Positions 720-40,398 of a stretch of DNA of 56,400 nucleotides are shown here, piece after piece. A program made the position numbers and the translations under genes. Under the pieces are notes generated by a model. It searched no databases and was not told where the DNA came from. It was given only the letters and a program-made list of their open reading frames with translations. The DNA lies in assembly GCA_964602465.1 (NCBI GenBank), contig CAZRQQ010000002.1, forward strand, positions 1 to 56,400. Reading direction: 5' to 3'. Origin of the DNA: an uncultured Candidatus Saccharibacteria bacterium. Lineage in GTDB: Bacteria > Patescibacteriota > Minisyncoccia > Phycocordibacterales > UBA9973. The stretch's first letter is position 1. Each line of letters opens with the position of its first letter.

Positions 720-2861
720 ATGAACCGAGAGTATTCACTCGAAAAAACACGAAACTTTGGGATTATCGCCCACATCGACGCTGGGAAGACCACTACTTCA
801 GAACGCGTCCTCTACTACACCGGCATGTCACACAAAATCGGTGAAGTACACGATGGTGAGACAACCACCGACTGGATGGAGCAGGAGCGCGAACGTGGTA
901 TCACGATTACTGCTGCTGCAGTGTCGTGTACCTGGATCCCAACGTATGCCAATGGTGACAAATCCAAGCGCTACGCGTTTAACATCATCGATACTCCGGG
1001 TCACATCGACTTTACGGTGGAAGTGAAGCGCTCGCTTCGTGTGCTCGACGGTGCAGTCGTCGTCTTTGATGGTGTTGCAGGTGTGGAGCCACAATCAGAA
1101 ACCAACTGGCGCTATGCTGACGAAGCAAATGTGCCTCGTATCTGTTTCGTCAACAAACTCGACCGTACTGGTGCATCATTTGAGCATTCATATAAGACGA
1201 TCCTTGACCGCCTTTCGAAGAAAGCAGTGCGCTATCAGATCCCAATCGGACTTGAAGACAAGCACGAAGGGGTGATCGATCTCCTGCAGATGAAGGCATA
1301 CTACTTTGAGGGCGACATGGGTAACAAGGTCGTGGAAAAGGAAGTACCCGCAGAGTATATGGACGATGCCAAAAAGTATCGTGCAGAGCTCATTGAGCGC
1401 ATTGTCGAAAACGATGAAGCAGCAATGAACGCATATCTTGAAGGTACGGAGCCAAGTCTTGAAGATCTCAAAAAACTCATGCGTAAGGCAGTGATCGCAA
1501 ACCAGATCTTCCCCGTGTTTGCAGGAAGTGCGCTCAAAAACAAAGGTGTACAGCTCGTGCTCGACGCAGTGGTGGACTATCTCCCTGCGCCAACAGATAT
1601 TAAGGCGGTGACTGGAGTACACCCTGATACCGAAGAGCCGCTTGAGCGTCATGCATCTGATAGTGAGCCGTTTTCTGCACTTGCATTTAAGAGCATGAAC
1701 GATCCGTTTGTCGGACAGCTTGTTTTCTTCCGTGTGTATTCAGGTACGGTTGAATCAGGATCATACGTCTACAATCCTCGCACTGGCAACAAAGAACGCC
1801 TCTCTCGTATCGTGCGTATGCAGGCTGATCAGCGACAGGAAATCAAGAAAGTGTTTGCGGGAGAAATCGCTGCAGCGGTGGGGCTTAAAGAGGTGAAAAC
1901 ATCCGACACACTCTGTGATGAGACAAACCCGATCCAGCTCGATCGTATCAAGTTCCCAGAACCAGTGATCAACCTTCGTATCGAACCAAAGACCAAGGCT
2001 GACCAAGAAAAGATGGGTCTTGCGCTCAATCGTCTCGCCGATGAAGATCCAACGTTTAAGGTATCTACTGATCCTGAAACTGAAGAAACGATCATTGCAG
2101 GTATGGGAGAACTCCACCTCGAAATTATCGTGGATCGTATGAAGCGTGAGTTTAATGTAGAAGCAAACGTGGGCAAGCCGCAAGTGGCATACCGCGAAAC
2201 CATCACTGCTGAAGCGCAGGCAGAAGGCAAGTACATCAAGCAGTCCGGAGGTAAGGGTAACTACGGACATGTGAAAATCAAGATCAAGCCAATGGATCAG
2301 ACTGTTGATCCAAAGGATCTTCCCAAGAACGTCAAGCGCGATGGATTCTTTGAATTCATCAACAACATCAAGGGAGGTGCGATCCCGGGTGAATACATTG
2401 CGCCGATCGAAAAGGGTCTCAGAGAAGGACTTGATCGCGGTGTGGTCGCAGGCTTCAAAATGGAAAACGTCTCAGTGGATCTCTACGATGGATCATTCCA
2501 CGAAGTCGACTCAAACGAAATGGCCTTCAAGATCGCCGCATCTATGGCGCTCCAAGATGCTGCAAAGGCTGCAAAGCCGGTCATTCTTGAGCCGATGATG
2601 AAGGTAGAAGTGGTGACTCCAGAGAAATTCATGGGTGATGTGACTGGCTCACTTTCATCTCGCCGAGGTCTTATCGAAGGTATGGAAACTCGCGGTATGA
2701 ACCAAGTGGTCAACGCCGTCGTACCACTCTCAGAAATGTTTGGCTACATGACCTCACTTCGTTCTATGACCGAAGGCCGTGCTGGATTTACGATGGAATT
2801 CTTGAGATACGATATAGTACCTCAAAATGTCGCCGATACTATCATTAAGTCACGCGCCTAA
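720..2861 (+). CDS. fusA: elongation factor G
   Basis: N-terminal GTPase motifs AHIDAGKTT and DTPGHIDF. 713 aa with EF-G domain architecture throughout. Confidence 0.95.
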   Translation: MNREYSLEKTRNFGIIAHIDAGKTTTSERVLYYTGMSHKIGEVHDGETTTDWMEQERERGITITAAAVSCTWIPTYANGDKSKRYAFNIIDTPGHIDFTVEVKRSLRVLDGAVVVFDGVAGVEPQSETNWRYADEANVPRICFVNKLDRTGASFEHSYKTILDRLSKKAVRYQIPIGLEDKHEGVIDLLQMKAYYFEGDMGNKVVEKEVPAEYMDDAKKYRAELIERIVENDEAAMNAYLEGTEPSLEDLKKLMRKAVIANQIFPVFAGSALKNKGVQLVLDAVVDYLPAPTDIKAVTGVHPDTEEPLERHASDSEPFSALAFKSMNDPFVGQLVFFRVYSGTVESGSYVYNPRTGNKERLSRIVRMQADQRQEIKKVFAGEIAAAVGLKEVKTSDTLCDETNPIQLDRIKFPEPVINLRIEPKTKADQEKMGLALNRLADEDPTFKVSTDPETEETIIAGMGELHLEIIVDRMKREFNVEANVGKPQVAYRETITAEAQAEGKYIKQSGGKGNYGHVKIKIKPMDQTVDPKDLPKNVKRDGFFEFINNIKGGAIPGEYIAPIEKGLREGLDRGVVAGFKMENVSVDLYDGSFHEVDSNEMAFKIAASMALQDAAKAAKPVILEPMMKVEVVTPEKFMGDVTGSLSSRRGLIEGMETRGMNQVVNAVVPLSEMFGYMTSLRSMTEGRAGFTMEFLRYDIVPQNVADTIIKSRA

Positions 2862-2901
2862 GCAAAACGCCTGCCCTGCGAAGCTTTGGCGTAGTGGGGT
2901 G

Positions 2902-2931
2902 GCAGATACAATCATCAAATCAAGAGCGTAA
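2902..2931 (+). repeat. synonymous duplicate of the last 9 codons of fusA (ADTIIKSRA-stop)
   Basis: gca gat aca atc atc aaa tca aga gcg taa encodes the same peptide as fusA 2832-2861. It differs at 10 nt, all synonymous. Confidence 0.7.
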
Positions 2932-2945
2932 TACTCTCACAAAAG

Positions 2946-2967
2946 ATCCCTGAAAGGGGATTTTTTG
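2946..2967 (+). terminator. rho-independent terminator after fusA
   Basis: atccc-tgaaag-gggat hairpin followed by TTTTTT. Confidence 0.6.
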
Positions 2968-2968
2968 A

Positions 2969-2996
2969 TTGACAAAAATATAAAACCTGATACAAT
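2969..2996 (+). promoter_or_regulatory. sigma70-like promoter (TTGACA-16-TACAAT) for cassette ORF 3021
   Basis: Consensus -35 and near-consensus -10 elements. A 23-nt block TTGACAAAAATATAAAA is shared with 10114-10142. Confidence 0.5.
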
Positions 2997-3020
2997 AAAG
3001 CAAAAGCACAAGTAACAATT

Positions 3021-3512
3021 ATGAAGGAAGCAGAATCACTACTGACCCTCCCCAGGGTTATTTTTAACTCGATTGAACGGGTATGGATTACCGTAGAAAT
3101 GTTTGAGCCTGAATTGCTTAAAAACCATATCAGGTTTCAAAAACAAACGATCAACCTTCATGGAACACTATTTACTATTGCAGTATTGGAACAACAGTAC
3201 GCATTTGGAAAAGGTGTTTATGAATGTCAGTCCTTATACGGATTTGAACTATCCAAAGAAGAAAGAACTGCAATGTTGTTTCATTACCATGGTATTAAGG
3301 CAAACACAGAGCGTCCGTTGGTCGATCAATTTAAATTTGAGATCTACAACAATGACGCAAAGTATCAGCCGCTGTATCGTTGTGTTGAAGATCTTGCACG
3401 GCGTGCAGTTCGTAGAATATTATCTACTACTGCTGACATAACTAAGTCAAATGGGGTAATCATTCCGCTTTCTTTATCGGTTAAAGAAAAAAGAGAATTA
3501 GTAGCTGTATAG
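3021..3512 (+). CDS. hypothetical protein (AT-rich cassette between fusA and tuf)
   Basis: 163-aa ORF with its own promoter and terminator. No recognisable domain. Confidence 0.5.
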   Translation: MKEAESLLTLPRVIFNSIERVWITVEMFEPELLKNHIRFQKQTINLHGTLFTIAVLEQQYAFGKGVYECQSLYGFELSKEERTAMLFHYHGIKANTERPLVDQFKFEIYNNDAKYQPLYRCVEDLARRAVRRILSTTADITKSNGVIIPLSLSVKEKRELVAV

Positions 3513-3525
3513 ACAGTTACTACAC

Positions 3526-3560
3526 AGCCAGGTATGCACTAACCATACCTGGCTTTTTTA
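3526..3560 (+). terminator. rho-independent terminator
   Basis: agccaggtatg...catacctggct 11-bp stem followed by TTTTTT. Confidence 0.6.
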
Positions 3561-3588
3561 TTGACAATCGCTTCCCAAATGCTATCAT
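3561..3588 (+). promoter_or_regulatory. promoter TTGACA-16-TATCAT upstream of tuf
   Basis: Consensus -35 immediately after the terminator. 16-nt spacer. Confidence 0.45.
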
Positions 3589-3645
3589 GAGGGACACGCA
3601 TTTTGCGTTGTTTTTGTTTGTTTATTAGCTTAGTTCAATATTTAT

Positions 3646-4836
3646 ATGGCAGATGTATTTAAGAGAGACAAGCCACACGTAAACGTTGGTACCATCGGTC
3701 ACGTTGACCACGGAAAGACCACACTTACGGCGGCAATCCTCCATGTTTTGAACATGAAGGGAAACCAGGTGAAGCTCAAGAAGGTTGATGAAATCGACGG
3801 AGCGCCTGAAGAAAAGGCACGTGGTATTACGATTAACATTTCGCACAACGAGTACGAAACGGAGAAGCGCCACTACGCGCACATCGACGCTCCAGGTCAC
3901 GCCGACTACATCAAGAACATGATTACCGGTGCGGCTCAGATGGACGGTGCAATCATTGTGGTTGCAGCGACTGATGGTGCAATGCCACAGACTCGTGAAC
4001 ACATCCTTCTTGCAAAGCAGGTGGGTGTACCAAAGATCATCGTGTTCCTCAACAAGTGCGACATGGTTGATGACAAGGATATGATCGACCTCGTGGAAGA
4101 AGAAATCCGTGAAATCCTCGCAAAACAAGGATTTGATAAGGATTGTCCTGTGATCCGTGGTTCAGGTCTTAAGGCTCTTGAGTCTACAAGTCTTGATGAT
4201 CCATGGGCACAGAAAGTTGTAGAGCTTGCAGATGCACTCGACACCTACATTCCAGAACCAGTTCGTGACCTCGACAAGCCATTCCTTATGCCGATCGAAG
4301 ACATCTTCTCAATCGAAGGACGTGGAACTGTTGTTACTGGTCGTATCGAACGCGGTATCGTCAAAGTTGGTGAAGATATCGAAATCGTCGGTATCAAGGA
4401 CACACAGAAAACTACCGTGACTGGTGTTGAAATGTTCAACAAGTCACTCGATCAGGGTCAGGCAGGTGACAACGCAGGTATTCTCCTCCGTGGTGTCAAG
4501 AAAGAAGACCTTACTCGTGGTCAGGTCCTTTGCAAACCTGGTTCAGTGAAGCCGCACACAGAATTCGAAGGTGAAGTCTACGTCCTCAAAAAGGAAGAAG
4601 GTGGACGTCACACTCCATTCGTCAACGGCTACAAGCCTCAGTTCTACGTTCGTACCACGGACGTGACTGGTGAAGTTACTCTCCCAGCCGGAACTGAAAT
4701 GGTTATGCCAGGTGACACCGTCAAAGTGACCGTGAAGCTCGTCGTACCAGTTGCGATGGAAGACCAGATGCGCTTTGCAATCCGTGAAGGTGGCCGCACA
4801 GTCGGTGCAGGTGTCGTAACCAAGATTATTGCGTAA
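3646..4836 (+). CDS. tuf: elongation factor Tu
   Basis: [13 protein letters not shown] and DAPGHADY motifs. 396 aa, canonical EF-Tu. Confidence 0.97.
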
Positions 4837-5344: not shown

Positions 5345-5767
5345 ATGTTAAGTTTATATCTATACACTACTCAGATGAATAAAAAAGATTATGCAGTTTG
5401 GGGCACTATAAAAACAAATGTTCACAACAACAAAGAGCGACCGTTCTTCCACGAACGTGAAGTGTGGTTCTGCACACTTGGTGAAAATGTTGGATTTGAG
5501 CAAGATGGGAGAGGAGAAAACTACCTACGACCAGTGGTTGTTGTGAGGAAATTTAATAACGCAGTTTGTCTTGTTGTGCCTTTAACCAAAAATCAAAAGA
5601 AAGGAATACATTACTTTTCTTTTTCATATAAAGATGATCTCGTAAGTACTGCCATTCTTTCCCAGGTTCGTCTTATCGATGCAAAGCGTCTTGATTATAA
5701 ATCAGGATTTATTTCAGAAACTGATTTTGAAGCCCTAAAACAAAAACTCAAGCAATTGATTGCCTGA
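5345..5767 (+). CDS. PemK/MazF-fold toxin-like protein (start may be 5375)
   Basis: [31 protein letters not shown]...[13 protein letters not shown]...RLIDAKRL matches the Kid/PemK/MazF motif pattern (RPVL(I/V)V, VVPVTS). No antitoxin ORF is visible upstream. Confidence 0.5.
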
Positions 5768-5956
5768 GTTTTTGACTTTTTACCCCGAAGGGAGGGCCGA
5801 AGCCATTTGTACCAATAGTATATTCCTTCCATTAAAACAAGTCAATTTTCCCCGAAGGGAACGTGGGTAGTCCCAAATGCATATCTAGTATATCAAATTC
5901 CCCGAAAGTGGATTTTTTGTTTCCCCAAAAATTTTGTATAGTACACAAAAACATCT

Positions 5957-6169
5957 ATGCCAACAAAGAGACAGTTGTGGCAAAATTGGGCATCTGAATT
6001 TGAATATTTTAGAGGACAAGATCCCAGGACATATCAACCAAAAGGTCCAGTGTCAATGACGGGAGAAGTAATCGGTACTATCCAGATTAACCCGGCCACT
6101 GGAGATTTGAGGATCATTCCTACTCCTCCTTCCTCAACTGAAGAAGATTCCCAACCAATAAACCCCTAA
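5957..6169 (+). CDS. hypothetical small protein (C-terminus ...SQPINP)
   Basis: 70-aa ORF. Its C-terminus and the downstream ~60 bp are repeated at the next gene's end. Confidence 0.3.
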   Translation: MPTKRQLWQNWASEFEYFRGQDPRTYQPKGPVSMTGEVIGTIQINPATGDLRIIPTPPSSTEEDSQPINP

Positions 6170-6226
6170 CACCGGTTTGTTTTTGCTTTTGGAGAACGGT
6201 GTGCTAGGGTAAGTAAAAAATACACA

Positions 6227-6820
6227 ATGTTCAAATTATTCAAATTACATCAGTACGGTAATGACACGTACTATGCAATCATATGTAGCAACCCACTTTC
6301 AGAGGAGTTACTCCAGAAGCTGAAAGAGGTATTTGAAAAACTATCTTCTCTTTCGCAACAGGAATATGACCATGTATGGTTTAGGGTGTCGGGTTTTTTT
6401 AAAGAATTCACTGACAGCACCTGCAATGGCCTTGTTCATGAGACTTGCTCGCACCCACTCAATGAGGGAGCAAACTTTGATGAGGCAATACGTCCTTGGC
6501 AAAAATATGATTACGTAAACAAAAAGTACGTAGACTGGTATGGACCACTCATGACCAAAGGAGATCAGGATGAAGAGTTCAAAGCCGCGTACGAGTTTTC
6601 ATACCATGCATCTTTTCGGTCGTCACTACTTGCCGCAGGAGTTCCTGAAAAGGATATAGAAAAAAGTATTATCTTTGAGGTGACCGATTGCCGTGACTGC
6701 TACGAAACGAATCCATTTGATTTTGCACAGTGGGTACTAAAACAAACAAAATCGTTGGAATATATCAATGCACTACTTCTACCACCTGCTTCGCAGAGTA
6801 CTGAACCAACAAACCCTTAA
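6227..6820 (+). CDS. hypothetical protein (C-terminus ...STEPTNP)
   Basis: 197-aa ORF. No recognised domain. Confidence 0.45.
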   Translation: MFKLFKLHQYGNDTYYAIICSNPLSEELLQKLKEVFEKLSSLSQQEYDHVWFRVSGFFKEFTDSTCNGLVHETCSHPLNEGANFDEAIRPWQKYDYVNKKYVDWYGPLMTKGDQDEEFKAAYEFSYHASFRSSLLAAGVPEKDIEKSIIFEVTDCRDCYETNPFDFAQWVLKQTKSLEYINALLLPPASQSTEPTNP

Positions 6821-6872
6821 CACCGGTTTGTTTTTTGTTACAGAAATGGTAGGGTAAGGAAAACTCATTACA

Positions 6873-7394
6873 ATGAAAGATATATTAAAGAAATTACGTT
6901 TTCCGATGCTTATATCGGCACTACTCATCTGGCCGCTGTTTGATGACTTCTTTACCAATACATCGCCTGAACTTATAGACTTTGCCCAATCAAATCGTGG
7001 TATAGCACTACGAATGTTGCTTGCAACGATAGGTTTTTTGATCGCATGTTGGAGGCTGCTAGGTATAACCTCAAAGGTCACTCGAGTATTCCCCCGATAC
7101 CCTGCGTATCGGATAGGGTGGGATGATTTTACAGTAGTGATTATTCTTTTAGGATTCGCACTACTTGTTGCCTCACTGGTAGTAGTAGTGGCCCTACTTA
7201 AAGATGTATATTTCAATACCCATCCAGGAATAGTAATAGTTAAAATTGTATACCCTTGGGCAGTAGGCAGCTGCTATGTTCTTATTGGTATTTTTGAGTA
7301 TAAGTATCCATTACTTCTCAAACAGTACGAACGACCAAATATAAGCAGAAGAGAAATCGATAAGATCCTCAAATATAAAAGCATTTTGCGGTAA
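6873..7394 (+). CDS. hypothetical membrane protein
   Basis: 173 aa with several hydrophobic helices. Confidence 0.45.
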   Translation: MKDILKKLRFPMLISALLIWPLFDDFFTNTSPELIDFAQSNRGIALRMLLATIGFLIACWRLLGITSKVTRVFPRYPAYRIGWDDFTVVIILLGFALLVASLVVVVALLKDVYFNTHPGIVIVKIVYPWAVGSCYVLIGIFEYKYPLLLKQYERPNISRREIDKILKYKSILR

Positions 7395-7407
7395 CTGAGA
7401 AAGATAT

Positions 7408-7431
7408 ATCCCCTGAAACGGGGATTTTTTA
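7408..7431 (+). terminator. rho-independent terminator
   Basis: atcccc-tgaaac-ggggat followed by TTTTTT. Confidence 0.6.
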
Positions 7432-7438
7432 TACTCAC

Positions 7439-7466
7439 TTGCGCAATTTTTGATCCCGTGTATAAT
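7439..7466 (+). promoter_or_regulatory. promoter TTGCGC-16-TATAAT restarting the S10 operon at rplC
   Basis: Consensus -10 TATAAT. Located between the cassette terminator and rplC. Confidence 0.45.
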
Positions 7467-7522
7467 CTCGGGACATTTAAAAGATCCCAAAGATCCTAAA
7501 GAATGGTCCAATACCCGCCCAG

Positions 7523-8164
7523 GTGGCGAGCAAGAACATGAAATTTATCGTCGGAACAAAACTCAATATGACGCAGCGCTTTGATGAAAAAGGCGTCGTA
7601 ACCCCTGTGACGGCTATTCTAGTACCGGCAAATACCATCACGGCGATCAAGACCCTCGAAAAGGACGGCTATAGTGCTGTTCAGGTCGGCTATGGCGAAC
7701 AGAAGGAGTCTCGCGTAAACGCGGCTCAGCTTAAGGCTACCGGTGGGAAAGCGTACGAAGGCATGAAGGAATTTCGCCTTGATGCTTCGGTAGCAAAAGA
7801 ATTTAGCAGCGGAGTAGGAGACGCAGTTGAGCTCTCAGCGTTTGCAGCAGGCGATCAGGTGATCGTAACTGGCACTTCAAAGAGTAAGGGCTTTCAGGGT
7901 GTGGTCAAGCGACATGGATTCCATGGTGGTCCTCGTTCACACGGTCAGAAGCATTCAGAACGCGAACCGGGCTCTATCGGTGGTGGTCCAGGACGTGCCG
8001 GAGGACGCGTGGTCAAAGGCATGCGCATGGCGGGACGCACTGGTGGTGACACGGTCACTGTCAAAGGTCTCAAGATCGTTGCAATCGAAGACGGCATGCT
8101 CTATATCAGTGGTGCTGTCCCTGGTCGTCGCGGCACACTCGTTAGTATCGTGAGTATGAGTTAA
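7523..8164 (+). CDS. rplC: 50S ribosomal protein L3
   Basis: L3 signature (KGKGFQGV.KRHGF.GG..SHG). Operon position. Confidence 0.93.
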   Translation: MASKNMKFIVGTKLNMTQRFDEKGVVTPVTAILVPANTITAIKTLEKDGYSAVQVGYGEQKESRVNAAQLKATGGKAYEGMKEFRLDASVAKEFSSGVGDAVELSAFAAGDQVIVTGTSKSKGFQGVVKRHGFHGGPRSHGQKHSEREPGSIGGGPGRAGGRVVKGMRMAGRTGGDTVTVKGLKIVAIEDGMLYISGAVPGRRGTLVSIVSMS

Positions 8165-8168
8165 TCCT

Positions 8169-8879
8169 ATGGCTACCAAAACTACTACAACCAAAAAAGC
8201 AAAAACTCCCGTATCACTCGATGCAGCTATTTACTCACAAAAGGGTGCAAAGGTTGGATCAATAGCGCTTCCTGAAAAGGTATTTGGCCTCAAGTGGAAT
8301 GCAAACCTCGTGCACGATGTAGTCATCGGCATGATGTCCAACAAGCGTGCAGGTACGGCACACACCAAGGATCGTTCAGAGGTGAGTGGTGGAGGCAAGA
8401 AGCCATGGAAACAAAAGGGAACTGGTCGCGCACGTCACGGCTCTACTCGCTCACCAATCTGGGTTGGCGGTGGTACGACGTTCGGTCCACGCAACGACAA
8501 AGATTACTCCAAGAAGATCAACAAAAAGACTCGCGTCAAAGCGCTCTTTACGGTCCTTTCACATCAATACGCAGGTGGCGCAGTCCTCTTTGTGGACACA
8601 CTCAGTCTCAGTGCGATCAAGACCAAAGATGCGCAGGCAGTGATCAAATCTCTCGCAAAGGTTGAAGGCTTCGACAAAATTGATTCAGAAAAGCGCACTG
8701 GTACACTCATGGTGCTTCCAGAAATCACTGAAACAGTTGCAAAGAGTTTTGCAAACCTTCCAGGCGTAACGCTTACCAAAGCTGCTGACCTCAATGCGCT
8801 CACGCTCGCTACCTACCGCCACATCGTGATGGTTGATCCGAGTGCGCTCGTACCAGTGCTTGAGGCAAAGATGAAATAA
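8169..8879 (+). CDS. rplD: 50S ribosomal protein L4
   Basis: KKPWKQKGTGRARHGS motif. Confidence 0.9.
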   Translation: MATKTTTTKKAKTPVSLDAAIYSQKGAKVGSIALPEKVFGLKWNANLVHDVVIGMMSNKRAGTAHTKDRSEVSGGGKKPWKQKGTGRARHGSTRSPIWVGGGTTFGPRNDKDYSKKINKKTRVKALFTVLSHQYAGGAVLFVDTLSLSAIKTKDAQAVIKSLAKVEGFDKIDSEKRTGTLMVLPEITETVAKSFANLPGVTLTKAADLNALTLATYRHIVMVDPSALVPVLEAKMK

Positions 8880-8885
8880 AATTGT

Positions 8886-9203
8886 ATGGACAAAAAAGAC
8901 ACAACTAAAAAGGAAGCAGAAACAAAAGTAGTGACAACTACAGTGTTGAAACACCCTCGTATCACCGAAAAGGCGGCAAAGGCAGCACAGACCAACACGT
9001 ATCTTTTCTCTGTGGCAGTTGGCGCAACCAAGAACGAAATCGCAAAGGCATTTGCAGCGCAGTACAAACACAAGCCAACAAGAGTAAATATCGTGAACGT
9101 AAAGCCCAAGGTATACCGCCGACGCGGCAAGCTCGGAGTCGGGTCACGTCTCAAAAAGGCGTATGTGACCTTGCCAAAGGGGACAACTATTGAAATCATG
9201 TAA
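8886..9203 (+). CDS. rplW: 50S ribosomal protein L23
   Basis: Size, position and the L23-like core (HPRITEKA...NTYLFSV). Confidence 0.85.
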   Translation: MDKKDTTKKEAETKVVTTTVLKHPRITEKAAKAAQTNTYLFSVAVGATKNEIAKAFAAQYKHKPTRVNIVNVKPKVYRRRGKLGVGSRLKKAYVTLPKGTTIEIM

Positions 9204-9211
9204 TCACTTGT

Positions 9212-10048
9212 ATGAAATCCTATAAACCTACAACCCAATCACGACGCAACACGCTCACGATCGAGTATCGTAAGTTCCTCACGCGTTCAAAGCCTGAGAA
9301 ATCTCTCACCAAGGGCAAGAAGCGCGCAGTCGGCCGCAACAACCTCGGTCGCATCACGACTCGTCACAAAGGAGGAGGCAACAAGCGCCTCTACCGTCTC
9401 GTCGACTTTTTGTACAACAAGCACAACATCCCTGCGCGCATTGCGTCAGTAGAATACGATCCAAACCGCTCTGCATTCATCGGTCTTGCGATCTACCGCG
9501 ATGGTGAGAAGCGCTACGTCGTCCTTCCAAAGGGGATCCAGGTCGGCACCACATTTACGGTCTCCGAAACTGCTCCTGTCGAACCCGGCAACCGTCTCCC
9601 GCTCAAGGCGATCCCTGCAGGTACCTTTGTATACAACATCGAGCTCAAGCCAGGTGCAGGTGCCAAGATCGTGCGCTCTGCAGGATCATTTGCTCAGGTT
9701 GTCGCGCAGCAAGACGGCTTCACCCAGCTCAAGCTTCCTTCTACTGAAATCCGCCGCGTCGCAGAACTCTGCTGGGCAACAGTTGGTACCGTCTCAAATG
9801 ATGAGAACAAACTTGTGAAGTATGGTAAGGCTGGTCGCTCAAGATGGAAAGGCATCCGTCCTACCGTCCGTGGTACTGCTATGAACCCAGTTGATCACCC
9901 ATACGGTGGTGGTGAAGGTGTACAAGGCCGTGGTACCAAGCGTCCCAAGACCCTCTGGGGTAAGGTTACTGGTGGCCGCAAGACACGCACCCCGAAGAAA
10001 TACTCCAACAAAGACGTCGTTACTCGACGCAAGGTTGGGAAGAAATAA
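9212..10048 (+). CDS. rplB: 50S ribosomal protein L2
   Basis: GRNN.GRITTRHKGGG and GGGEG motifs. Confidence 0.95.
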   Translation: MKSYKPTTQSRRNTLTIEYRKFLTRSKPEKSLTKGKKRAVGRNNLGRITTRHKGGGNKRLYRLVDFLYNKHNIPARIASVEYDPNRSAFIGLAIYRDGEKRYVVLPKGIQVGTTFTVSETAPVEPGNRLPLKAIPAGTFVYNIELKPGAGAKIVRSAGSFAQVVAQQDGFTQLKLPSTEIRRVAELCWATVGTVSNDENKLVKYGKAGRSRWKGIRPTVRGTAMNPVDHPYGGGEGVQGRGTKRPKTLWGKVTGGRKTRTPKKYSNKDVVTRRKVGKK

Positions 10049-10072
10049 TCTCCTCAAATACGAACTCACAAA

Positions 10073-10098
10073 AACCGCCCAAAAGGGTGGTTTTTGCT
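10073..10098 (+). terminator. rho-independent terminator after rplB
   Basis: aaccgccc-aaaa-gggtggtt followed by a T-run. Confidence 0.6.
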
Positions 10099-10113
10099 GC
10101 AATGGTTTTGATA

Positions 10114-10142
10114 TTGACAAAAATATAAAATTATGATATAAG
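10114..10142 (+). promoter_or_regulatory. promoter TTGACA-17-TATAAG; shares the TTGACAAAAATATAAAA block with 2969-2996
   Basis: Direct sequence identity of a 23-nt block to the fusA-tuf cassette promoter. Confidence 0.5.
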
Positions 10143-10184
10143 ATATGCAAATTCAAAATATTTTTTAACAACAAAAAAATCACA

Positions 10185-10778
10185 ATGATGACAGTATCAA
10201 GACAAACGGAAGAGTGGTTGAAACAAAATCAATTAACACTCTACAACCTCCTTAGTCTCGCCTTTGTGGCTCGAAGAACTTATGAGGATATGATGACAAA
10301 ACAAGCTCGGTGGCTCCCATCTTTACACCGACTTTTCATGGTAACTGAACTCGAAGAGTTTAGGCTTTCCGATGAAGAGTCTCAGAAGTACAACGATGAT
10401 AAGCAGACAAAGGCAAAAGTCCTTACTGATGAACTCATCGCAAGCTATCTGATAAAAGAGTGGAAGCAAACGGGCAAGTTGCCTGAAGAAAAGTATCTCC
10501 TTGTTACTGGAGAAAGAGCATCAAAGGATAAAACAGTCCTTACTGATCTCTTGATTAGAAAAATCAAAGGACAATCTGAAGATATTCCTATGGCTAAAAA
10601 TAATCAATCTACCAGCATCAACGGGGCCATTATTCCAACAGGTATTCTTAGTATTGCGACTACTGAAATAAAAACAGTACTGGAGTCTAAGAGTGGTGAT
10701 ATAGATCAATACCGAAAAACAAATGCAAAGGAATTAAAAAACCTTAGCATCATTCGTAGGAAATACTGCCACTATTAA
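10185..10778 (+). CDS. hypothetical protein (cassette in rplB-rpsS gap)
   Basis: 197-aa ORF, AT-rich. No recognisable domain. Confidence 0.5.
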   Translation: MMTVSRQTEEWLKQNQLTLYNLLSLAFVARRTYEDMMTKQARWLPSLHRLFMVTELEEFRLSDEESQKYNDDKQTKAKVLTDELIASYLIKEWKQTGKLPEEKYLLVTGERASKDKTVLTDLLIRKIKGQSEDIPMAKNNQSTSINGAIIPTGILSIATTEIKTVLESKSGDIDQYRKTNAKELKNLSIIRRKYCHY

Positions 10779-10803
10779 GGCGGGCGGTGAAGGATCTGCA
10801 ACT

Positions 10804-11451
10804 GTGAATATTACAGGAACATTTGGGCTCCATGCCATACAGGTACAAGTCAATACGGTACCAACCGCTCCTTTTATTTCAGGTCCAACATATGTTAAAC
10901 CTGGAGATACGTATTCTTTCGAGCTTCAGCGGCATACTCGTGACGATGTATATTGGGAAATTGAAAAAAACCCAACAGAAGTCGTTGGTATTCCAGATCT
11001 GCATGACAAAAAGAAGTATTCTGTAAAGGTTGAACCCGAGTGTAAGGATTGTGCTGTGACATTATATGTCAGGTTAAAAACCAACCGTTCGCTGGTCGCT
11101 CAAAAAAATATCAATATATTGGAAGCAGGTTCAAAAAAACAGCCTCCGATTATAAAGATAGGAAAGAAAGAGTATAGAATATCGAGCGGTGTGTATTTTC
11201 CTGAAACAGTTGCACAGGTTGATTATTTGTTCAACGAGTCGCAGGTATTGGAAATAGTTATCAATCCAATCCATCCCAGAATAAAAGACATGGGGTATAT
11301 GCAGTCCATGGACCATATATTGGCTGCAATAGCGAATGTTGCCATGATTGATCAGGTGTATGACAAACTGATTAATCCTAGTGAAGCACAAGGAATTGCC
11401 GAGAATTTTGTCGCTGTGATGAAAGACAGCTTGTTGAATAAAAAACAATAG
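10804..11451 (+). CDS. hypothetical protein (GTG start, possibly co-transcribed with 10185)
   Basis: 215-aa ORF directly downstream. No recognisable domain. Confidence 0.45.
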   Translation: MNITGTFGLHAIQVQVNTVPTAPFISGPTYVKPGDTYSFELQRHTRDDVYWEIEKNPTEVVGIPDLHDKKKYSVKVEPECKDCAVTLYVRLKTNRSLVAQKNINILEAGSKKQPPIIKIGKKEYRISSGVYFPETVAQVDYLFNESQVLEIVINPIHPRIKDMGYMQSMDHILAAIANVAMIDQVYDKLINPSEAQGIAENFVAVMKDSLLNKKQ

Positions 11452-11466
11452 ATTGCTCTTTACATC

Positions 11467-11494
11467 GAACCGGTTTCTACCGGTTCTTTTTATT
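11467..11494 (+). terminator. rho-independent terminator (gaaccggt-ttct-accggttc + T-run)
   Basis: 8-bp stem followed by TTTTTATTTT. Confidence 0.6.
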
Positions 11495-11522
11495 TTGACA
11501 AACCAATCCAGAGGAGTAGGAT
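11495..11522 (+). promoter_or_regulatory. cassette promoter TTGACA-16-TAGGAT
   Basis: Same architecture as 11980-12007 and 12560-12587. Confidence 0.45.
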
Positions 11523-11540
11523 AGGGAAAAAATTACAACT

Positions 11541-11942
11541 ATGAATATATCTGTTCATCCCCATGCGGGAAATCACACAGTCGACTCAGCGACGATCGTT
11601 GTGACAGGCAAAGATTTCAATATTATATTTAGAATCAACCCTCGAGGTGCCGTCGAAGTACAAAATGCTACAGATGTTTCTGCCACGATGCCATTTAAGG
11701 TACAACCAGATGGAAATATCGCACTTGATCCTAACTCTCGTGACCACGTAACTATCAAAGCCGGATTGGTGGGCATGGAAGGTGGGCCTGAGCTGAGTAT
11801 GACTGCACAAACATTGATGCAGCGACCTGTACATGTGATTACAAGTATAGGAAAGGGTACTCCGGTACTGAAAGTACGTGATGGAAGCGGTTGTTGGAAG
11901 CATGAAAACGTACTGGAATGGGCGCAAGAAGAGCGACAGTGA
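11541..11942 (+). CDS. hypothetical protein
   Basis: 133-aa ORF bracketed by a promoter and terminator. Confidence 0.45.
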   Translation: MNISVHPHAGNHTVDSATIVVTGKDFNIIFRINPRGAVEVQNATDVSATMPFKVQPDGNIALDPNSRDHVTIKAGLVGMEGGPELSMTAQTLMQRPVHVITSIGKGTPVLKVRDGSGCWKHENVLEWAQEERQ

Positions 11943-11949
11943 TACATCA

Positions 11950-11978
11950 AACTACTGAATAGTTCAGTAGTTTTTTAT
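11950..11978 (+). terminator. rho-independent terminator (aactactgaa-tag-ttcagtagtt + T-run)
   Basis: 10-bp perfect stem followed by TTTTTTATTTT. Confidence 0.65.
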
Positions 11979-11979
11979 T

Positions 11980-12007
11980 TTGACAAACTGGCGAGAGTGG
12001 GTAGTAT
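11980..12007 (+). promoter_or_regulatory. cassette promoter TTGACA-16-TAGTAT
   Basis: The TTG that the ORF track uses as the start of 11980..12525 is the -35 hexamer. Confidence 0.5.
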
Positions 12008-12027
12008 GGAGGAAAACATACCTTCAT

Positions 12028-12525
12028 ATGAAACAAAAAAGAAAAGTGCGTGCTGAAACATATCCAGCGAATGTGTTGGAAACCATCAACAAAAAGTTGA
12101 TCGACCGTATCTATACGGAAAAAAATAAATTTCTGGTAACACGTATAACAGATGCTTGTCTGGCTGCTTCGGCGAGTGATCTAAAGACACTCTTTGGGAG
12201 GCTTCCTGGTGCATATGACGGAGAGTTGATACATATCCTGTGCAATAAGCCTGGATCCAATCCTACTGGATTTCATATGGTCACCAAAACTCCCAAAAGG
12301 TTTGAGTTGCGGCGAGGTACCGAACTTATTGTCATACTTACTTCACCAAAAGAAATCTACAGTACTCATCATGAACCTGCTACAGCAAACGATATTGTTA
12401 TCAAAAAACAAACACGGTTCAAAAATCTGTTGAAGGAGCAGGGTATCAATCGAAGTAACTTCACCAGTTACGGCATCTTTTTGCTCGAACTGTGTTTTCA
12501 AACCAGGTCTTCCAAAATCGCATAA
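12028..12525 (+). CDS. hypothetical protein, paralog A (start revised to the ATG at 12028)
   Basis: In-frame ATG after a GGAGG. The internal block ACLAASASDLKTLFGRLPGAYDGELIHILC is similar to 12605 ALCLVAPPKELNKMFNGLRTYSASELAHILC. Confidence 0.5.
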   Translation: MKQKRKVRAETYPANVLETINKKLIDRIYTEKNKFLVTRITDACLAASASDLKTLFGRLPGAYDGELIHILCNKPGSNPTGFHMVTKTPKRFELRRGTELIVILTSPKEIYSTHHEPATANDIVIKKQTRFKNLLKEQGINRSNFTSYGIFLLELCFQTRSSKIA

Positions 12526-12531
12526 GTACAT

Positions 12532-12560
12532 AAACCCTTTTCAGTAGGGTTTATTTTTTT
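12532..12560 (+). terminator. rho-independent terminator (aaaccct-tttcagt-agggttt + T-run)
   Basis: Near-identical to the terminator at 600-623. Confidence 0.65.
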
Positions 12561-12587
12561 TGACAAAAAAGCCTAGGTGAGTAGTAT
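12560..12587 (+). promoter_or_regulatory. cassette promoter TTGACA-16-TAGTAT
   Basis: Third copy of the promoter architecture. Confidence 0.5.
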
Positions 12588-12604
12588 GAAGAAAAATTAA
12601 AAAC

Positions 12605-13159
12605 ATGAAAAGACCATATAAGTTTTTGCAGGACAAAGATTTCTCCTGTAGCGACATCACACCATCGTATGTTGATGCTATATACAAAGAAAGAGGTGAT
12701 GGTAATCTTGCTCAATACATCACAGCGCTATGTCTTGTTGCTCCACCGAAAGAACTCAATAAGATGTTTAATGGTTTACGAACGTATTCTGCAAGTGAGC
12801 TTGCGCACATTCTGTGTGCTGAAACTGCTTCGCGTGCGGTGAATAAATTTACAATACAAAACCGACAAGCAACTCAATTTGATCTATTTCGGAACGGCAG
12901 TCTCTTGAGAAGGTTTAAACAAAGGTGTCTCCACATTCCTACGTTTAATCAAAAAAAATCTGAACAAGAAATTGCACCCGAAGAATTTCAGAGCCTTCTT
13001 GTGCAACACGGTATTACTGAGAGTATTCTTGCTGAATGCTTGATTAAGCCAGTACCACCTCCGCCATATCTGTACAATATTCCCGAATGGAATGCTGTAG
13101 TTACTCCGGTGTACCGACCACTACGGCACATAGATCATCTCAAAGCCCTTTCAGCGTAA
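12605..13159 (+). CDS. hypothetical protein, paralog B of 12028..12525
   Basis: Shared motif ...ELxHILC... with the upstream gene. 184 aa. Confidence 0.5.
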   Translation: MKRPYKFLQDKDFSCSDITPSYVDAIYKERGDGNLAQYITALCLVAPPKELNKMFNGLRTYSASELAHILCAETASRAVNKFTIQNRQATQFDLFRNGSLLRRFKQRCLHIPTFNQKKSEQEIAPEEFQSLLVQHGITESILAECLIKPVPPPPYLYNIPEWNAVVTPVYRPLRHIDHLKALSA

Positions 13160-13636: not shown

Positions 13637-13900
13637 ATGTTTTACGTGTATTGTTTGGAAAGTAAGGTTCGAGAACGCGAACTGTATTTTGGATGCACTA
13701 CCGATTTGAAACGTAGATTGATTGAACATAATACTGGACTTAACAAATCCACAAAACGCTACATACCGTGGAAGCTTATTTACTATGAAGCCTGCCTATC
13801 GGAGGTTGATGCATACCGAAGGGAGGAATACCTAAAAACCAGTACCGGAAGGAGGATGTTTTCAAGGAGAATTAGTGGGTATTTGAGGGGCCGGATTTGA
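13637..13900 (+). CDS. GIY-YIG nuclease family protein (stand-alone, UPF0213-like)
   Basis: FYVYCL...YFGCTTDLKRRLIEHN is the GIY-YIG motif. 87 aa. Confidence 0.8.
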   Translation: MFYVYCLESKVRERELYFGCTTDLKRRLIEHNTGLNKSTKRYIPWKLIYYEACLSEVDAYRREEYLKTSTGRRMFSRRISGYLRGRI

Positions 13901-13977
13901 CCCGGAAGTGAGCCTTGGCATAGTACTCCGTACAGACGCGGCTTTGCCGCAATGCCAAGATCTACTTCCGGGTTGAC
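13900..13977 (+). repeat. structured 78-nt repeat element, copy 1 (hairpin module ending in -35 TTGAC)
   Basis: cccggaagtgagccttggcat...atgccaagatctacttccggg is a long imperfect inverted repeat enclosing gtac-tcc-gtac and gcggc-ttt-gccgc hairpins. About 95% identical to 20055-20134. Confidence 0.8.
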
Positions 13978-17514: not shown

Positions 17515-20055
17515 GTGAAATCTTTTAGTAGTTTTTTTAGTACACACAAACGAACACTTGCTGCACTTTTGTTTGGCCTCGCGTTTTCGGCGACTGTTGC
17601 GTTTGCAGTACCACCGAGTACTGAGTACAGTCCAGGCGAGACACTTGATCCAAACTGTGCGCCAGGAGATACCAACTGCGCGGTCATTCCCACCGCGTCT
17701 GCGATCGAAGATGGTGCAGTAGAAATCGCTGACTTTTCGGCAAGCGGCACACCGAGTGCAAGTACGTTTTTGCGTGGAGATAACACATGGGCAACTGTTT
17801 CGGGGAGCGGTACAGTCACGTCATTTGCATTTACCAACGGTGGCGGATTCACTGGCAACGTCAGCAACGCCACCTCAACTCCTACGCTCTCGCTTACACT
17901 TCAAGATGCTGTAGCTGATGGCTCAACTAAGGGTGCTGCAGCATTTACCGCAGCAGATTTTAATGCATCAAGTGGGCTCATTTCTATAGACTATACCAAC
18001 GGTCAGGCAGCATCAGGTTCGACCAAGGGATTCCTTACTTCTGCTGACTGGACGACGTTTAACGGTAAGGAAAGTGCACTCACGTTTTCTATTGGACTTA
18101 CACGTACTACTAATACAATCACCGTTAACACTACACAAAACATTGCCAAACTTTCAAACCTTACTTCAAACGGCTTTATTAAGACATCGGGGAGTGACGG
18201 TACGCTCAGTGTTGATACCAGTACCTATCTTACAGGTAACGAGGCTATTACTCTTTCGGGGGATATATCTGGGAGTGGTACTACCACAATCACAACTACG
18301 ATTGGATCTGGTAAAGTCACGAACACTATGCTTGCTGGCTCGATCACTGCAGCAAAACTCGTAGGAACCGATATTGCAACAGTGGGTACTATCGGTACGG
18401 GTACGTGGCAAGGCACGGTCGTGGGTGCAACCTACGGAGGTACTGGTGTAAACAATGGGTCAAACACGATAACACTTGCGGGCAATCTCGTGACGACTGG
18501 GGCGTTTAATACTACGTTTGCAGCAAGCGCGACGGGGACCTATACTCTCCCTAGTGCGACTTCGACGCTTTTGGCAAACAATCTCGGGATTAGTGGCGGG
18601 TCAACACTGGTCGGAGGAACAGGATCTGGTGAAAACCTCACACTTTCTTCAACGAGTAATGCAACTAAAGGTAAAATCATCTTCGGATCTGCCTCAGCGT
18701 ATGACCAAGTCAACGATCGATTTGGAATTGCACAGACCACCCCATTAGCAAGACTTCATGTGCAGCGTGATGCAATAGGTGCCACCCAAGATGATTCATA
18801 CGGTATCTTGTTGCAAAACTCAACGGCAGCAGCAGCGGGCGCACAGCAGTATTCACCATCGATCGTATTTGCAGGAAATGGATGGAAATCAAGTGCAACT
18901 GCAGCGAGTCAAGATGTACGGTTTCGTATTTATAATAGTCCTGTGCAAGGTGCGGGCTCCGCATCCGGGTTGTTGAATTTTGAGTCAGCACTTAATGGTG
19001 GTGCATACACCACGCTCATGACACTATCAAGTGCACAAGCATTGAGCTTAAACAGTGCCGGAACGATTTTTATTGGATCAGGTCTGGCTTTGACTAATGT
19101 TACCGCTCAAGTACCAACTGTATTTGGTGGCACTGCGGTGAGCTCATCACTTACACTTAAATCAACGAGCGGTGTCGGATCTTCGGACTTCATCCGTTTT
19201 CAGGTCGGCAACAACGGTGCAACTGAAGCAATGCGTATCATCACTTCTGGATTTGTGGGTATTGCCAATACTGCTCCTGGAGTCGCACTCCACATCGGTT
19301 CGTCGTCAACCACTGACGCTACAACACTTCTTCGTCTCCAAGACTCAAACTCTACCTGTAACTTCACTGCAGATTCTGGTGCGCCAACGTGTGGATCTGA
19401 CCGCACCCTCAAGAAAGATATCGAATCCATGGATAATGCCGACCTCCTTGCTCGGGTATCTGCACTCAATCCAGTGACCTATCGATGGCTTACTGATACT
19501 GATGATGCAAAACTCCAGCATGGGTTCATTGCACAAGAAGTAGAAGAACAATTCCCGGAGCTTGTGACCGAGAATGTCTGGGGTGATGGCACCATGCGCA
19601 AATTCCTCAATATTGGCGGTCTCATGCCGTATGCGATCGGTGCGATCAAGCAAATGAATCTCCAGATCGTTGGCATTGCAGATCTAGGCACAACCAACAC
19701 TTGGCGTGATAGCTTACTTGCATGGTTTGGAAATGCAGGCAACGGCATAGAGTCTTTCTTTAGTAAGAAGGTTACGACGAGCGAGCTTTGTGTAGGGGAC
19801 GAGACTGATCAGGTTTGTGTCACCAAAGATCAGCTTCGAACACTCTTGCAGCAGGGGGGAAGTGCATCAGTTGCGCCAATAGTGATTCCAGATCCAGTGC
19901 CAGAGGAGGCTACCGGAGAGACGCCTGAGGAGACACCGGTCGAAGAGACTGTGACCCCAGAACCAGAGGCTATAGAACCTACACCAGAGCCAGAACCGGC
20001 TCCAGAACCCACAGCCCCTGAGGCTCCGGCAGAAGCTCCTGCTCTTACCGAATAA
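17515..20055 (+). CDS. secreted tail-fibre-like surface protein with C-terminal intramolecular chaperone (peptidase S74-type) domain and Pro/Glu/Thr-rich tail
   Basis: N-terminal signal/anchor MKSF...AFSATVAFA. Long Gly/Ser/Thr-rich repetitive body. C-terminal TCGSDRTLKKDIESM...LNPVTYRW....HGFIAQEVEEQFPELV matches the endosialidase/tail-fibre autoprocessing chaperone domain. PEPEPAPEP tail. Confidence 0.7.
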   Translation: MKSFSSFFSTHKRTLAALLFGLAFSATVAFAVPPSTEYSPGETLDPNCAPGDTNCAVIPTASAIEDGAVEIADFSASGTPSASTFLRGDNTWATVSGSGTVTSFAFTNGGGFTGNVSNATSTPTLSLTLQDAVADGSTKGAAAFTAADFNASSGLISIDYTNGQAASGSTKGFLTSADWTTFNGKESALTFSIGLTRTTNTITVNTTQNIAKLSNLTSNGFIKTSGSDGTLSVDTSTYLTGNEAITLSGDISGSGTTTITTTIGSGKVTNTMLAGSITAAKLVGTDIATVGTIGTGTWQGTVVGATYGGTGVNNGSNTITLAGNLVTTGAFNTTFAASATGTYTLPSATSTLLANNLGISGGSTLVGGTGSGENLTLSSTSNATKGKIIFGSASAYDQVNDRFGIAQTTPLARLHVQRDAIGATQDDSYGILLQNSTAAAAGAQQYSPSIVFAGNGWKSSATAASQDVRFRIYNSPVQGAGSASGLLNFESALNGGAYTTLMTLSSAQALSLNSAGTIFIGSGLALTNVTAQVPTVFGGTAVSSSLTLKSTSGVGSSDFIRFQVGNNGATEAMRIITSGFVGIANTAPGVALHIGSSSTTDATTLLRLQDSNSTCNFTADSGAPTCGSDRTLKKDIESMDNADLLARVSALNPVTYRWLTDTDDAKLQHGFIAQEVEEQFPELVTENVWGDGTMRKFLNIGGLMPYAIGAIKQMNLQIVGIADLGTTNTWRDSLLAWFGNAGNGIESFFSKKVTTSELCVGDETDQVCVTKDQLRTLLQQGGSASVAPIVIPDPVPEEATGETPEETPVEETVTPEPEAIEPTPEPEPAPEPTAPEAPAEAPALTE

Positions 20056-20134
20056 CCCGGAAGTGAGCCTTGTGGCATAGTACTCCGTACAGACGCGGCT
20101 TCGTCGCAATGCCAAGATCTACTTCCGGGTTGAC
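20055..20134 (+). repeat. structured 80-nt repeat element, copy 2
   Basis: Direct repeat of 13900-13977 with a 2-nt insertion. The inner hairpin change gccgc to gtcgc keeps pairing through a G·U. Confidence 0.8.
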
Positions 20135-28748: not shown

Positions 28749-28857
28749 GTATGTATGTTTTAACTACTAATCTACAAAATGCCTGCGGATCGACTGTTTC
28801 TACGGAGCTCTTTTGTGCAGTGATTCTGTCAGAAATAATACAAAATGTCAAATAATT

Positions 28858-29251
28858 GTGGAGATGGGGGTATCGAAACCCCGTGTAGTGTGAGTGGATA
28901 GCTAGTTCTACATGTGTAGCGTCATGTGATTGTTTGAGTGAATATTCTCAACACGAGCAAAATGAATATTCACCGAGCTCTTACTTGTTTGGTGCGGGGC
29001 AAAAGCGTGCCTTGCTGCCTATCCCGATGAGTGTTGCCGCGATCTATCTATCGGAAGTCGATAGGTGCGACACCAGATTGACCTAAAGCTTAGGCGAATG
29101 CTGGAGCGAAGCCAAATGCGTTAGCAAATGGAGACTTCACCTTAGCGATGCTGTTGCCAGTTATCGTGTGTGAACGAATGGTGACGGTGTTGCGTTCATA
29201 CCCGACATGCGTAGCTGTCTCAGGCTCATACTATCGAAACCTGTCATCCCC
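28858..29251 (-). ncRNA. ssrA: tmRNA (transfer-messenger RNA)
   Basis: Minus-strand 5' end GGGGAUGACAGGUUUCGAUAG. 3' end ACGGGGUUUCGAUACCCCCAUCUCCAC with the acceptor stem pairing to the 5' end. Internal frame ...GCU AAC GCA UUU GGC UUC GCU CCA GCA UUC GCC UAA. Adjacent to smpB. Confidence 0.75.
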
Positions 29252-40369: not shown

Positions 40370-40398
40370 ACAACAGTTAGCACGACTTGCGTCGTTAT

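Follow-up and report, generated by a model that had tools for sequence, protein, structure and literature searches.

The stretch of DNA analysed here (the window) comprises 56,400 nucleotides (nt) of contig CAZRQQ010000002.1, assembly GCA_964602465.1, from an uncultured bacterium of the candidate phyla radiation (CPR), and the feature under study is the 3' end of fusA, the gene for elongation factor EF-G, which is followed in this genome by a second copy of its own last codons. The parts of this duplicated gene end, in the coordinates of the window, are as follows.

720..2861, plus strand: fusA, an intact functional gene encoding an EF-G of 713 amino acids (open reading frame (ORF) list; Pfam GTP_EFTU, EFG_III, EFG_IV and EFG_C).
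2829..2861, plus strand: copy 1, the functional tail and proposed replacement end, GTC GCC GAT ACT ATC ATT AAG TCA CGC GCC TAA, read as VADTIIKSRA*.
2862..2868, plus strand: the junction, G followed by CAA AAC, a remnant of the old Gln-Asn codons, which read CAA AAT in the functional gene, with CAAAA as a possible microhomology to the A-tract past the stop of relatives.
2869..2898, plus strand: a GC-rich imperfect palindrome of 30 nt, GCCTGCCCTGCGAAGCTTTGGCGTAGTGGG, in frame (peptide ACPAKLWRSG) and placed exactly between the old Asn and Val codons.
2899..2931, plus strand: copy 2, the proposed abandoned earlier end and now 3' untranslated, GTG GCA GAT ACA ATC ATC AAA TCA AGA GCG TAA, read as VADTIIKSRA*.

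The two copies are alike in ten residues and the stop and differ at 8 of 33 nt, all differences being synonymous and the longest run identical in both being 5 nt. The gap of 37 nt between them (2862-2898) is not fusA sequence, and copy 2 lies out of frame with fusA, at an offset of 70 nt and so in the +1 frame. A sequence-only reading of this DNA had already recognised that ADTIIKSRA* is encoded at both 2832-2861 and 2902-2931 and that every change between the two is synonymous, CGC to AGA included; its count of 10 differences in 30 nt should read 7, and the nine codons that it took as the repeat extend to ten residues and the stop (2829-2861 against 2899-2931), since the Val codon, GTC in one copy and GTG in the other, adds a further 5' codon of peptide identity. 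It missed the in-frame palindrome of 30 nt and the two old codons, CAA AAC, that stand 5' of it.

The repeat is not a product of chance, the refutation that the sequence-only reading had itself proposed and thought unlikely. Among 1552 ORFs of at least 100 amino acids, drawn from the window and the collected loci, a downstream copy of the last nine residues at 8/9 or better is found for fusA ORFs only, and among the 62 genes of the window a duplicate of tail or head reaches 8/10 or better for fusA alone, a single 7/10 match of ORF 11980-12525 being judged fortuitous. Nor is the arrangement an artefact of assembly. The source is a metagenome in which related strains co-occur, and an assembler might in principle have merged two strain variants; against this, the arrangement is base-identical in the window and in L001, L170 and L171 (four assemblies from three samples), analogues come from three unrelated studies, and the 37 nt between the copies are foreign to fusA, such that we accord this explanation virtually no likelihood. 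An identical EF-G protein is found in three other assemblies.

The nature of the differences indicates how the two ends came to stand side by side. Eight differences placed at random in the window copies would all be synonymous with a probability of about 2e-5, and the proportions of differing synonymous and non-synonymous sites (pS and pN) are about 0.9 and 0.05, a synonymous divergence like that between the tails of different species. This pattern is not peculiar to the window. We surveyed 46 CPR fusA loci including the window, gathered in two scans, one of a genome collection and one of metagenomes. Four lineages have one or two additional intact tail copies 3' of fusA, and the three besides the window, which come from unrelated studies, show analogous but non-identical arrangements.

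L017 (a Wolfebacteria metagenome-assembled genome, MAG): three copies, at 3379, 3492 and 3635, with an exact tandem unit of 113 nt; palindrome of 30 nt, peptide ARPDEHPFGR; old codons 5' of it GTT CCC AAG AAT, 12/12 identical to the real codons.
L100: second copy 80 nt downstream, 9/10 identical; palindrome of 36 nt, peptide ACPVPSRRLWFG; old codons GTG CCT AGT AAT.
L101: second copy 1030 nt downstream, with a GNAT acetyltransferase gene and an ORF of 60 amino acids in between; palindrome of 30 nt, peptide FRKDSPCESY; old codons AAG AAT.

Taken together, the four lineages show 31 synonymous and 2 non-synonymous differences between copies (P = 6e-17 for random placement), pS is about 1.0, that is, synonymous sites are saturated, and the copies have intact stops and no insertions or deletions (indels) between them. 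The longest identical runs outside the window are 2 nt in L100, where every codon differs between copies, 5 nt in L101 and 8 nt in L017. Differences that are both synonymous and saturated imply that the two tails evolved as coding sequence, in different lineages, before they were joined, and the suggestion of the sequence-only reading that two diverged gene ends had been brought together is borne out by this species-level divergence and by the recurrence in L017, L100 and L101. The relic copies encode the tails of their own lineages (VADTIIKSRA, VAETIIAGRK, VAETIIAARK and VADEIIKARS), and the four events are thus independent. Local tandem duplication of the gene end with subsequent neutral drift of the unused copy would account for direct repeats 70 nt apart, and for the exact 113-nt unit of L017, yet drift predicts about 75% non-synonymous changes accompanied by indels and stops; the substitution pattern refutes such an origin, and its residual likelihood is very small. 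Codon usage gives equal likelihoods for both copies and does not decide which is native. Two matches with odd tails, P0004 and P0027, were discarded as sequencing errors, both coming from long-read contigs whose fusA and tuf are broken up by frameshifts, and viral contigs scanned for the fusA ends of CPR bacteria held distant EF-G genes only.

The conservation of the copy 2 peptide could also mean that both ends are in use. Translation would then shift frame, or hop from the AAT at 2826-2828 to the AAC at 2866-2868, yielding an EF-G isoform with a 10-residue insertion (the expected peptide being NACPAKLWRSGVADTIIK) and keeping copy 2 under selection; translational bypass has precedents in the mitochondrial 'byp' elements and in T4 gene 60. 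The peptide is indeed perfectly conserved, an Asn codon precedes both Val codons, and the survey contains no half-decayed tail copy, identities being 9-10/10 or else noise at or below 6/10. However, the copies are offset by 70 nt in the window, 80 nt in L100, 113 and 143 nt in L017 and 1030 nt in L101, equivalent to +1, +2, +2 and +1, a complete tail with its stop intervenes, and in L101 the copies stand 1 kb apart. Since, in addition, no take-off or slippery signal is conserved across lineages, use of both ends is scarcely plausible, and programmed bypass or frameshifting as a class is set aside, the frame relation not being fixed.

In all four lineages the relic copy is interrupted by a palindrome exactly at the boundary AAY|GTN, in frame and stop-free. 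Those of the window, L100 and L017 belong to one GC-rich family (GCCYGCCC...GAAGCYTTGG...GGGG), the window palindrome being a homologue of its L100 counterpart, which occupies the same site, and a relative of the palindromes in L017, L092 and the window gene recG, whereas the palindrome of L101 is unrelated. As DNA, the window palindrome forms a weak hairpin (z = 0.37), with RNA pairing mainly through G-U, as compared with z = -4.3 for that of L100. The exact palindrome has no other match in the 56-kb window at up to 3 mismatches, and GCCYGCCC has a single further copy there, inside recG. This gene (36189-38432, minus strand) contains at 37996-38035 a palindrome of the same family, in frame, with the peptide LPALPFGRGQAG, in a stretch that exceeds the corresponding part of solved RecG structures by about 20 residues, as would fit an in-frame insertion that is tolerated. 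Around the palindromes no target-site duplication came to light, the copies sampled being two in 56 kb plus those of L100, L017, L092 and L010. The hairpin fits neither a tRNA-like minihelix nor an integron attC site by eye; Rfam 15 gives no match at gathering score for the inter-copy hairpin in the window, and permissive Rfam scans of window 2780-3030 and L017 3360-3920 returned chance-level matches only (E above 0.1).

Other palindromic sequences accompany fusA elsewhere. At 3421-3529 of L010, and identically in L090, an element of about 110 nt, its AT-rich core enclosed by GC-rich terminal inverted repeats (GCCTGCCCGCCAATGCC / GGCGATGGCAGGCGGGC), resembles a miniature inverted-repeat transposable element and shares the motif GCCTGCCC with the window palindrome. 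L101 holds three palindrome copies, at 2925-2965, 3640-3680 and 3879-3908 (TCGCAAGAAC G GTTCTTGCGA and variants), whose symmetry is kept via compensatory changes; reiterated half-sites lie on their flanks, and like cassette borders they delimit the GNAT gene and the 60-residue ORF.

Of particular relevance to the position of the palindrome are the codons on its 5' side. Pooled over the four lineages, the 6 nt immediately 5' of it match the real fusA codons at 20 of 24 positions (P = 4e-9), and codon -2 alone at 10 of 12. Codons of the old gene thus persist there, and hence the palindrome lies within the old gene end and not at the new/old junction, which sits 2 to 4 codons further upstream, varying by lineage. 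From the new stop to the old-gene codons there are 0, 1, 68 and about 950 nt, and the linkers are unrelated; in the window the junction falls one base past the new stop.

These observations bear on two alternatives, each of which we consider unlikely. The first supposes that recoded tail, stop, linker and palindrome (2829-2898, 70 nt) arrived in one piece, as a non-autonomous unit inserting site-specifically before the Val codon, and that by bringing its own gene end it would let an essential gene survive. The identical right junction, palindrome|GTN, in four lineages would follow naturally, as would the cargo of about 1 kb, with its GNAT gene, between the copies of L101, and the copies of L100 differ as if selected for dissimilarity. 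But the old-gene codons place the palindrome in the old copy, the left junction and the linkers vary as just described, no recombinase or nuclease gene lies between the copies (the 1-kb insert of L101 in particular has no recombinase domain), and the 70-nt unit is found once in 56 kb. The unusual codons ACA ATA ATA common to the functional tails of L100 and L101 might be taken as the sign of an element-borne tail; we rejected this, ATA being used elsewhere in fusA of both lineages too. The second alternative, of about the same modest standing, reverses the order: an unrelated recombination between fusA and tuf would have produced the duplication, and palindromes preferring AAY|GT would later have settled in a harmless untranslated copy. 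Insertions in the functional copy would be purged, the middle copy of L017 is without a palindrome, the palindromes have a left flank of (A/G)A(T/C) or ATT at other sites also, and the region is highly variable in length and cargo. Nevertheless, all four palindromes are multiples of 3 nt and stop-free, which is needless in non-coding DNA (about 1/81 if independent), the same bond has been struck in 4 of 5 relic copies by two unrelated palindrome families, and the origin of the duplication and its junctions would be left unexplained.

Downstream of copy 2 the window contains the following.

2941..2967, plus strand: a strong intrinsic terminator (A-tract, GC stem, T run), directly 3' of copy 2.
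2969..2996, plus strand: a promoter-like site, TTGACA-16-TACAAT (11/12 matches), upstream of ORF163.
3021..3512, plus strand: ORF163, an ORFan cassette with its own terminator at 3526-3560, followed by a tuf promoter-like site at 3561-3588.

The terminator stands where the fusA terminator stands in single-copy relatives, and the whole context of copy 2 (stop, about 10 nt including CAAAA, then terminator) is the same in every one of them. Copy 1 lacks such a terminator, and 1 nt past its stop the remnants of the old gene begin. The sequence-only reading was therefore right to call the downstream copy the old or alternative terminus, this being the copy that is followed by stop, A-tract and terminator. 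Its other proposals, that this copy flanks an inserted ORF at 3021-3512 and that an element may have integrated, are not supported: both tail copies are upstream of ORF163, with terminator and promoter-like site in between and no tail copy beyond its far side, and between the copies there are only 37 nt, with no element body and no identical crossover core. ORF163 is a neighbour, unrelated to the duplication and outside it. No homologue was found among 5.8e9 proteins (word-indexed search) or 1.84e9 representatives (exhaustive HMMER), it has no Pfam or NCBIfam match, and its single-sequence AlphaFold model is unusable (predicted local distance difference test, pLDDT, 47); ORF163 as the driver of the gene-end event was rejected on these grounds. 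It is one of many ORFan cassettes in the ribosomal-protein operons of this genome.

The spacer between fusA and tuf is a hot spot, ranging from 169 nt to more than 1.8 kb with cargo that differs even among close relatives, and in L100 an IS256-family transposase of the Zn-binding variant (1622-2548; NCBIfam E = 4.5e-69), about 400 nt past the relic fusA end, is a further sign of this. Contigs L170 and L171, in which fusA, tail copy, terminator and promoter are identical to those of the window, both end at window position 3014, 6 nt 5' of the ORF163 start codon, which suggests a strain-level branch point with a variable coding part behind a shared promoter. Given such turnover, copy 2 might itself be foreign, that is, the left end of incoming DNA composed of a truncated donor fusA end, terminator, promoter and ORF163, recombined within tuf on the right and joined illegitimately just past the resident stop on the left. 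The frequent exchange of cargo at this site and the ORFan character of ORF163, with its lower GC content at third codon positions (0.33 against 0.51), would be in keeping with such an import. Yet L170 and L171 retain the tail copy, terminator and promoter and break at 3014, so that the variable boundary is there and not at 2862; moreover, a donor with a palindrome-bearing fusA is needed and none was seen, L017 and L100 have no cargo ORF between relic copy and terminator, and the resident terminator would have to have been deleted with nucleotide precision. We consider a foreign copy 2 distinctly less probable than the two alternatives discussed above.

Whatever the exact course of events, the feature is real, recurrent and explicable as a replaced gene end together with its relic. 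The explanation that we favour, with about as much confidence as doubt, is that copy 2 is the earlier fusA end, split by the palindrome and then bypassed by a diverged replacement end spliced in upstream of it. According to this proposal a palindromic element of 30 nt, a multiple of three and stop-free, would have landed between Asn and Val, ten codons before the stop, giving an allele whose EF-G had a C-terminal tail longer by ten inserted residues. A clean tail would later have come from a diverged relative that lacked the insertion, by homologous recombination on the fusA side and, on the other side, by joining at the CAAAA microhomology (the post-stop A-tract of the donor against CAA AAC of the recipient) two codons 5' of the palindrome, by way of homology-facilitated illegitimate recombination or else of template switching at the palindrome. 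EF-G would then again end in ...PQNVADTIIKSRA at 2861, and the old codons, palindrome, tail and terminator would have become untranslated 3' sequence. The order of these steps, the foreign origin of copy 1 and the mechanism of recombination are what we infer from the observed arrangement. Replacement of the gene end would explain why synonymous sites are saturated, why copy 2 stands in a native context, why the palindromes keep the reading frame, why old codons survive, why relic copies go strictly with palindromes and why the arrangement recurs across lineages. Likewise, the in-frame palindrome in recG argues that palindromes of this family can sit in coding DNA, and the position of the L010 element, 6 nt past the fusA stop, can be counted in favour.

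The closest relatives are compatible with this picture without fixing its polarity. The C-terminus of the window EF-G is 78-93% identical to those of MAGs labelled Candidatus Nomurabacteria, Paceibacterota and similar, and the five closest lineages (at least 90% EF-G identity, 83-86% nucleotide identity in fusA) have one tail only, without palindrome, and other cargo, making the event specific to the lineage of the window; all five have CAAAA shortly past the stop. One of the relatives, L174 (86% fusA nucleotide identity), occurs in the same sample, ERZ27309396, as the window's strain (L171), and donor DNA is accordingly plausible. A sliding-identity search along fusA against 11 relatives gave no recombination breakpoint, the relatives being too distant. 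In L172-L179 (EF-G at least 90% identical) the last residues past ...K(S/A)R vary (A, S, Q, TA and TTTTA), and that both window copies end in SRA (2856-2861 in copy 1) is a tighter match than expected of a random related donor.

Several points weigh against the replacement of an earlier end by a relative's. Summed over 27 nt, differences to the five relatives number 32 for copy 1 and 27 for copy 2, so that neither is clearly closer and polarity rests on context rather than on phylogeny. A palindrome-bearing tail as the sole fusA end was not found among about 55 CPR loci, and a profile of hypothetical insertion-bearing EF-G tails, built from three query sequences (the upstream parts of two having been composed by us) and run against 5.8e9 proteins, gave as its top matches ordinary EF-G C-terminal fragments. 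In two lineages the donor segment ends 0-1 nt past the stop, tighter than random illegitimate joining predicts, the microhomology being an explanation for the junction of the window. The lack of partly decayed copies requires a fast turnover, and the three-copy mosaic of L017, with its 113-nt tandem unit, needs events beyond a single replacement. A bolder form of the hypothesis can be envisaged, doubtful as it stands, in which tiny palindromes target the Asn|Val bond of EF-G and persist only in frame, and their hosts repeatedly escape by capturing a relative's recoded gene end just upstream, the stacked ends (up to three, in L017) being fossils of this conflict; or else recoded tail and palindrome together might form a mobile unit of 70-113 nt carrying a substitute end.

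The remainder of the window is also rich in insertions and repeats. The str/S10/spc ribosomal-protein operons (5345-13159 and 17515-20055) are interrupted by many non-ribosomal ORFs, among them a MazF/PemK toxin (5345-5767), six ORFans without Pfam match and a protein of 846 amino acids with a Peptidase_S74 (endosialidase chaperone) domain, and their intergenic sequences hold repeated TTGACA-type promoter-like boxes and terminator-like hairpins around the inserted ORFs; Peptidase_S74 proteins are encoded just upstream of fusA in L173 and L174. A repeat of about 80 nt at 13900-13977 and 20055-20134 (97% identical; no Rfam match at gathering score) forms a long, very stable branched hairpin (RNA z of -5.6 and -2.6 for first and second copy), one copy lying directly 3' of a small GIY-YIG ORF (13637-13900) and the other directly 3' of the 846-residue ORF; this GIY-YIG ORF is 10.7 kb from the fusA end, with no link shown between the two. 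The 3' part of tRNA-Ser(GCT) with the sequence following it (40342-40396) is repeated 1256 nt downstream (41598-41652) at 75% identity, bracketing two ORFs, one of them a DUF2231 membrane protein, and could be an att-like duplication left by a small integrated element. A tmRNA gene is present at 28856-29251 on the minus strand and a LOOT RNA (RF03000) at 56300-56400, cut by the window end. A protein of 2028 amino acids (48580-54666) with SpvB, TcdB middle/N-terminal, FG-GAP and RHS repeat domains, resembling a Tc toxin or RHS protein, is unusual cargo for a small CPR genome.

The wider significance of the fusA locus is that streamlined CPR genomes appear to undergo repeated insertion, and repair with foreign DNA, at the 3' end of a gene that is essential and highly conserved. 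What is left is a readable record, a relic gene end with codons that stem from another lineage. A gene end that is identical in peptide and diverged in codons, behind a stop, may serve as a signature of inter-lineage recombination in uncultured bacteria, and the palindromes point to a small element with an unusually precise target.

Among systems already described, the closest kind is the C-terminal gene-end replacement of fungal mitochondria, in which mobile ORFs encoding homing endonucleases have replaced the ends of Allomyces atp6 and of Glomus atp6, atp9, cox2 and nad3 (PMC3630166). There the inserted C-terminus completes the ORF and the native one is kept downstream, the ends show low nucleotide identity with near-identical peptides, read as horizontal acquisition from related species, and an endonuclease ORF of about 0.5-1 kb between the ends drives the event (PMC3630166). 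In the window, likewise, the inserted C-terminus is in phase with the gene core and the native one is retained downstream; in contrast, 37 nt without ORF or nuclease separate the ends, the cargo in L101 is a GNAT acetyltransferase, and the setting is a bacterial chromosome and fusA, with a relic end that bears an in-frame palindrome; the insert measures only 40-70 nt. Integrative elements offer a second comparison. Phage 21 and e14 enter the 3' end of E. coli icd carrying a substitute gene end. In archaea, the EF-2 gene is a target of casposons in its 3'-distal part (PMC4046053). Such elements resemble the present case in that a duplicated, diverged end keeps the target intact and, in archaea, in that the gene end of EF-G/EF-2 is the landing site, yet they encode an integrase or casposase, have a body that separates the repeats and show an identical core or a target-site duplication, whereas the window has no enzyme gene, no body between the copies and no identical run beyond 5 nt. 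Gene-end duplication at an att site by a tyrosine or serine recombinase was consequently rejected, there being neither a recombinase-bearing body nor an identical crossover core.

As to the palindromes themselves, the Rickettsia palindromic elements are small in-frame repeats inside ORFs that are translated and tolerated (PMC10969869), and the palindromes of 30-36 nt described here, like that in recG, are in frame and of a length compatible with translation. The Rickettsia elements, however, are about 150 bp long and of high copy number, compared with 30-36 nt and few copies per genome as sampled here, where one and the same codon bond in a single gene recurs in three lineages. The extragenic, high-copy REP/REPIN-RAYT class (repetitive extragenic palindromes and their RAYT transposases) was rejected, our elements lying within (former) coding sequence, with one other GCCYGCCC copy and no GTAG/CGTC tag noted. 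So was a diversity-generating retroelement: all window substitutions are synonymous and include G/C and C/T, the four lineages share no A-specific pattern, the repeat measures only 33 nt, and no reverse transcriptase was found among the ORFs scanned, which were a part of all ORFs.

With regard to mechanism, homology-facilitated illegitimate recombination during natural transformation has been described in Acinetobacter and pneumococcus, and to our knowledge it has never been shown in CPR bacteria. A homologous anchor combined with a microhomology junction, resident DNA being kept, would give just such a partial duplication, and the junction sequence by itself suggests that this process may have operated here. 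Gene-end replacement has so far been described mainly for the endonuclease-driven elements of fungal mitochondria and for prophages; at the fusA end it would have occurred without a local enzyme gene, the insert being only tens of bases long.

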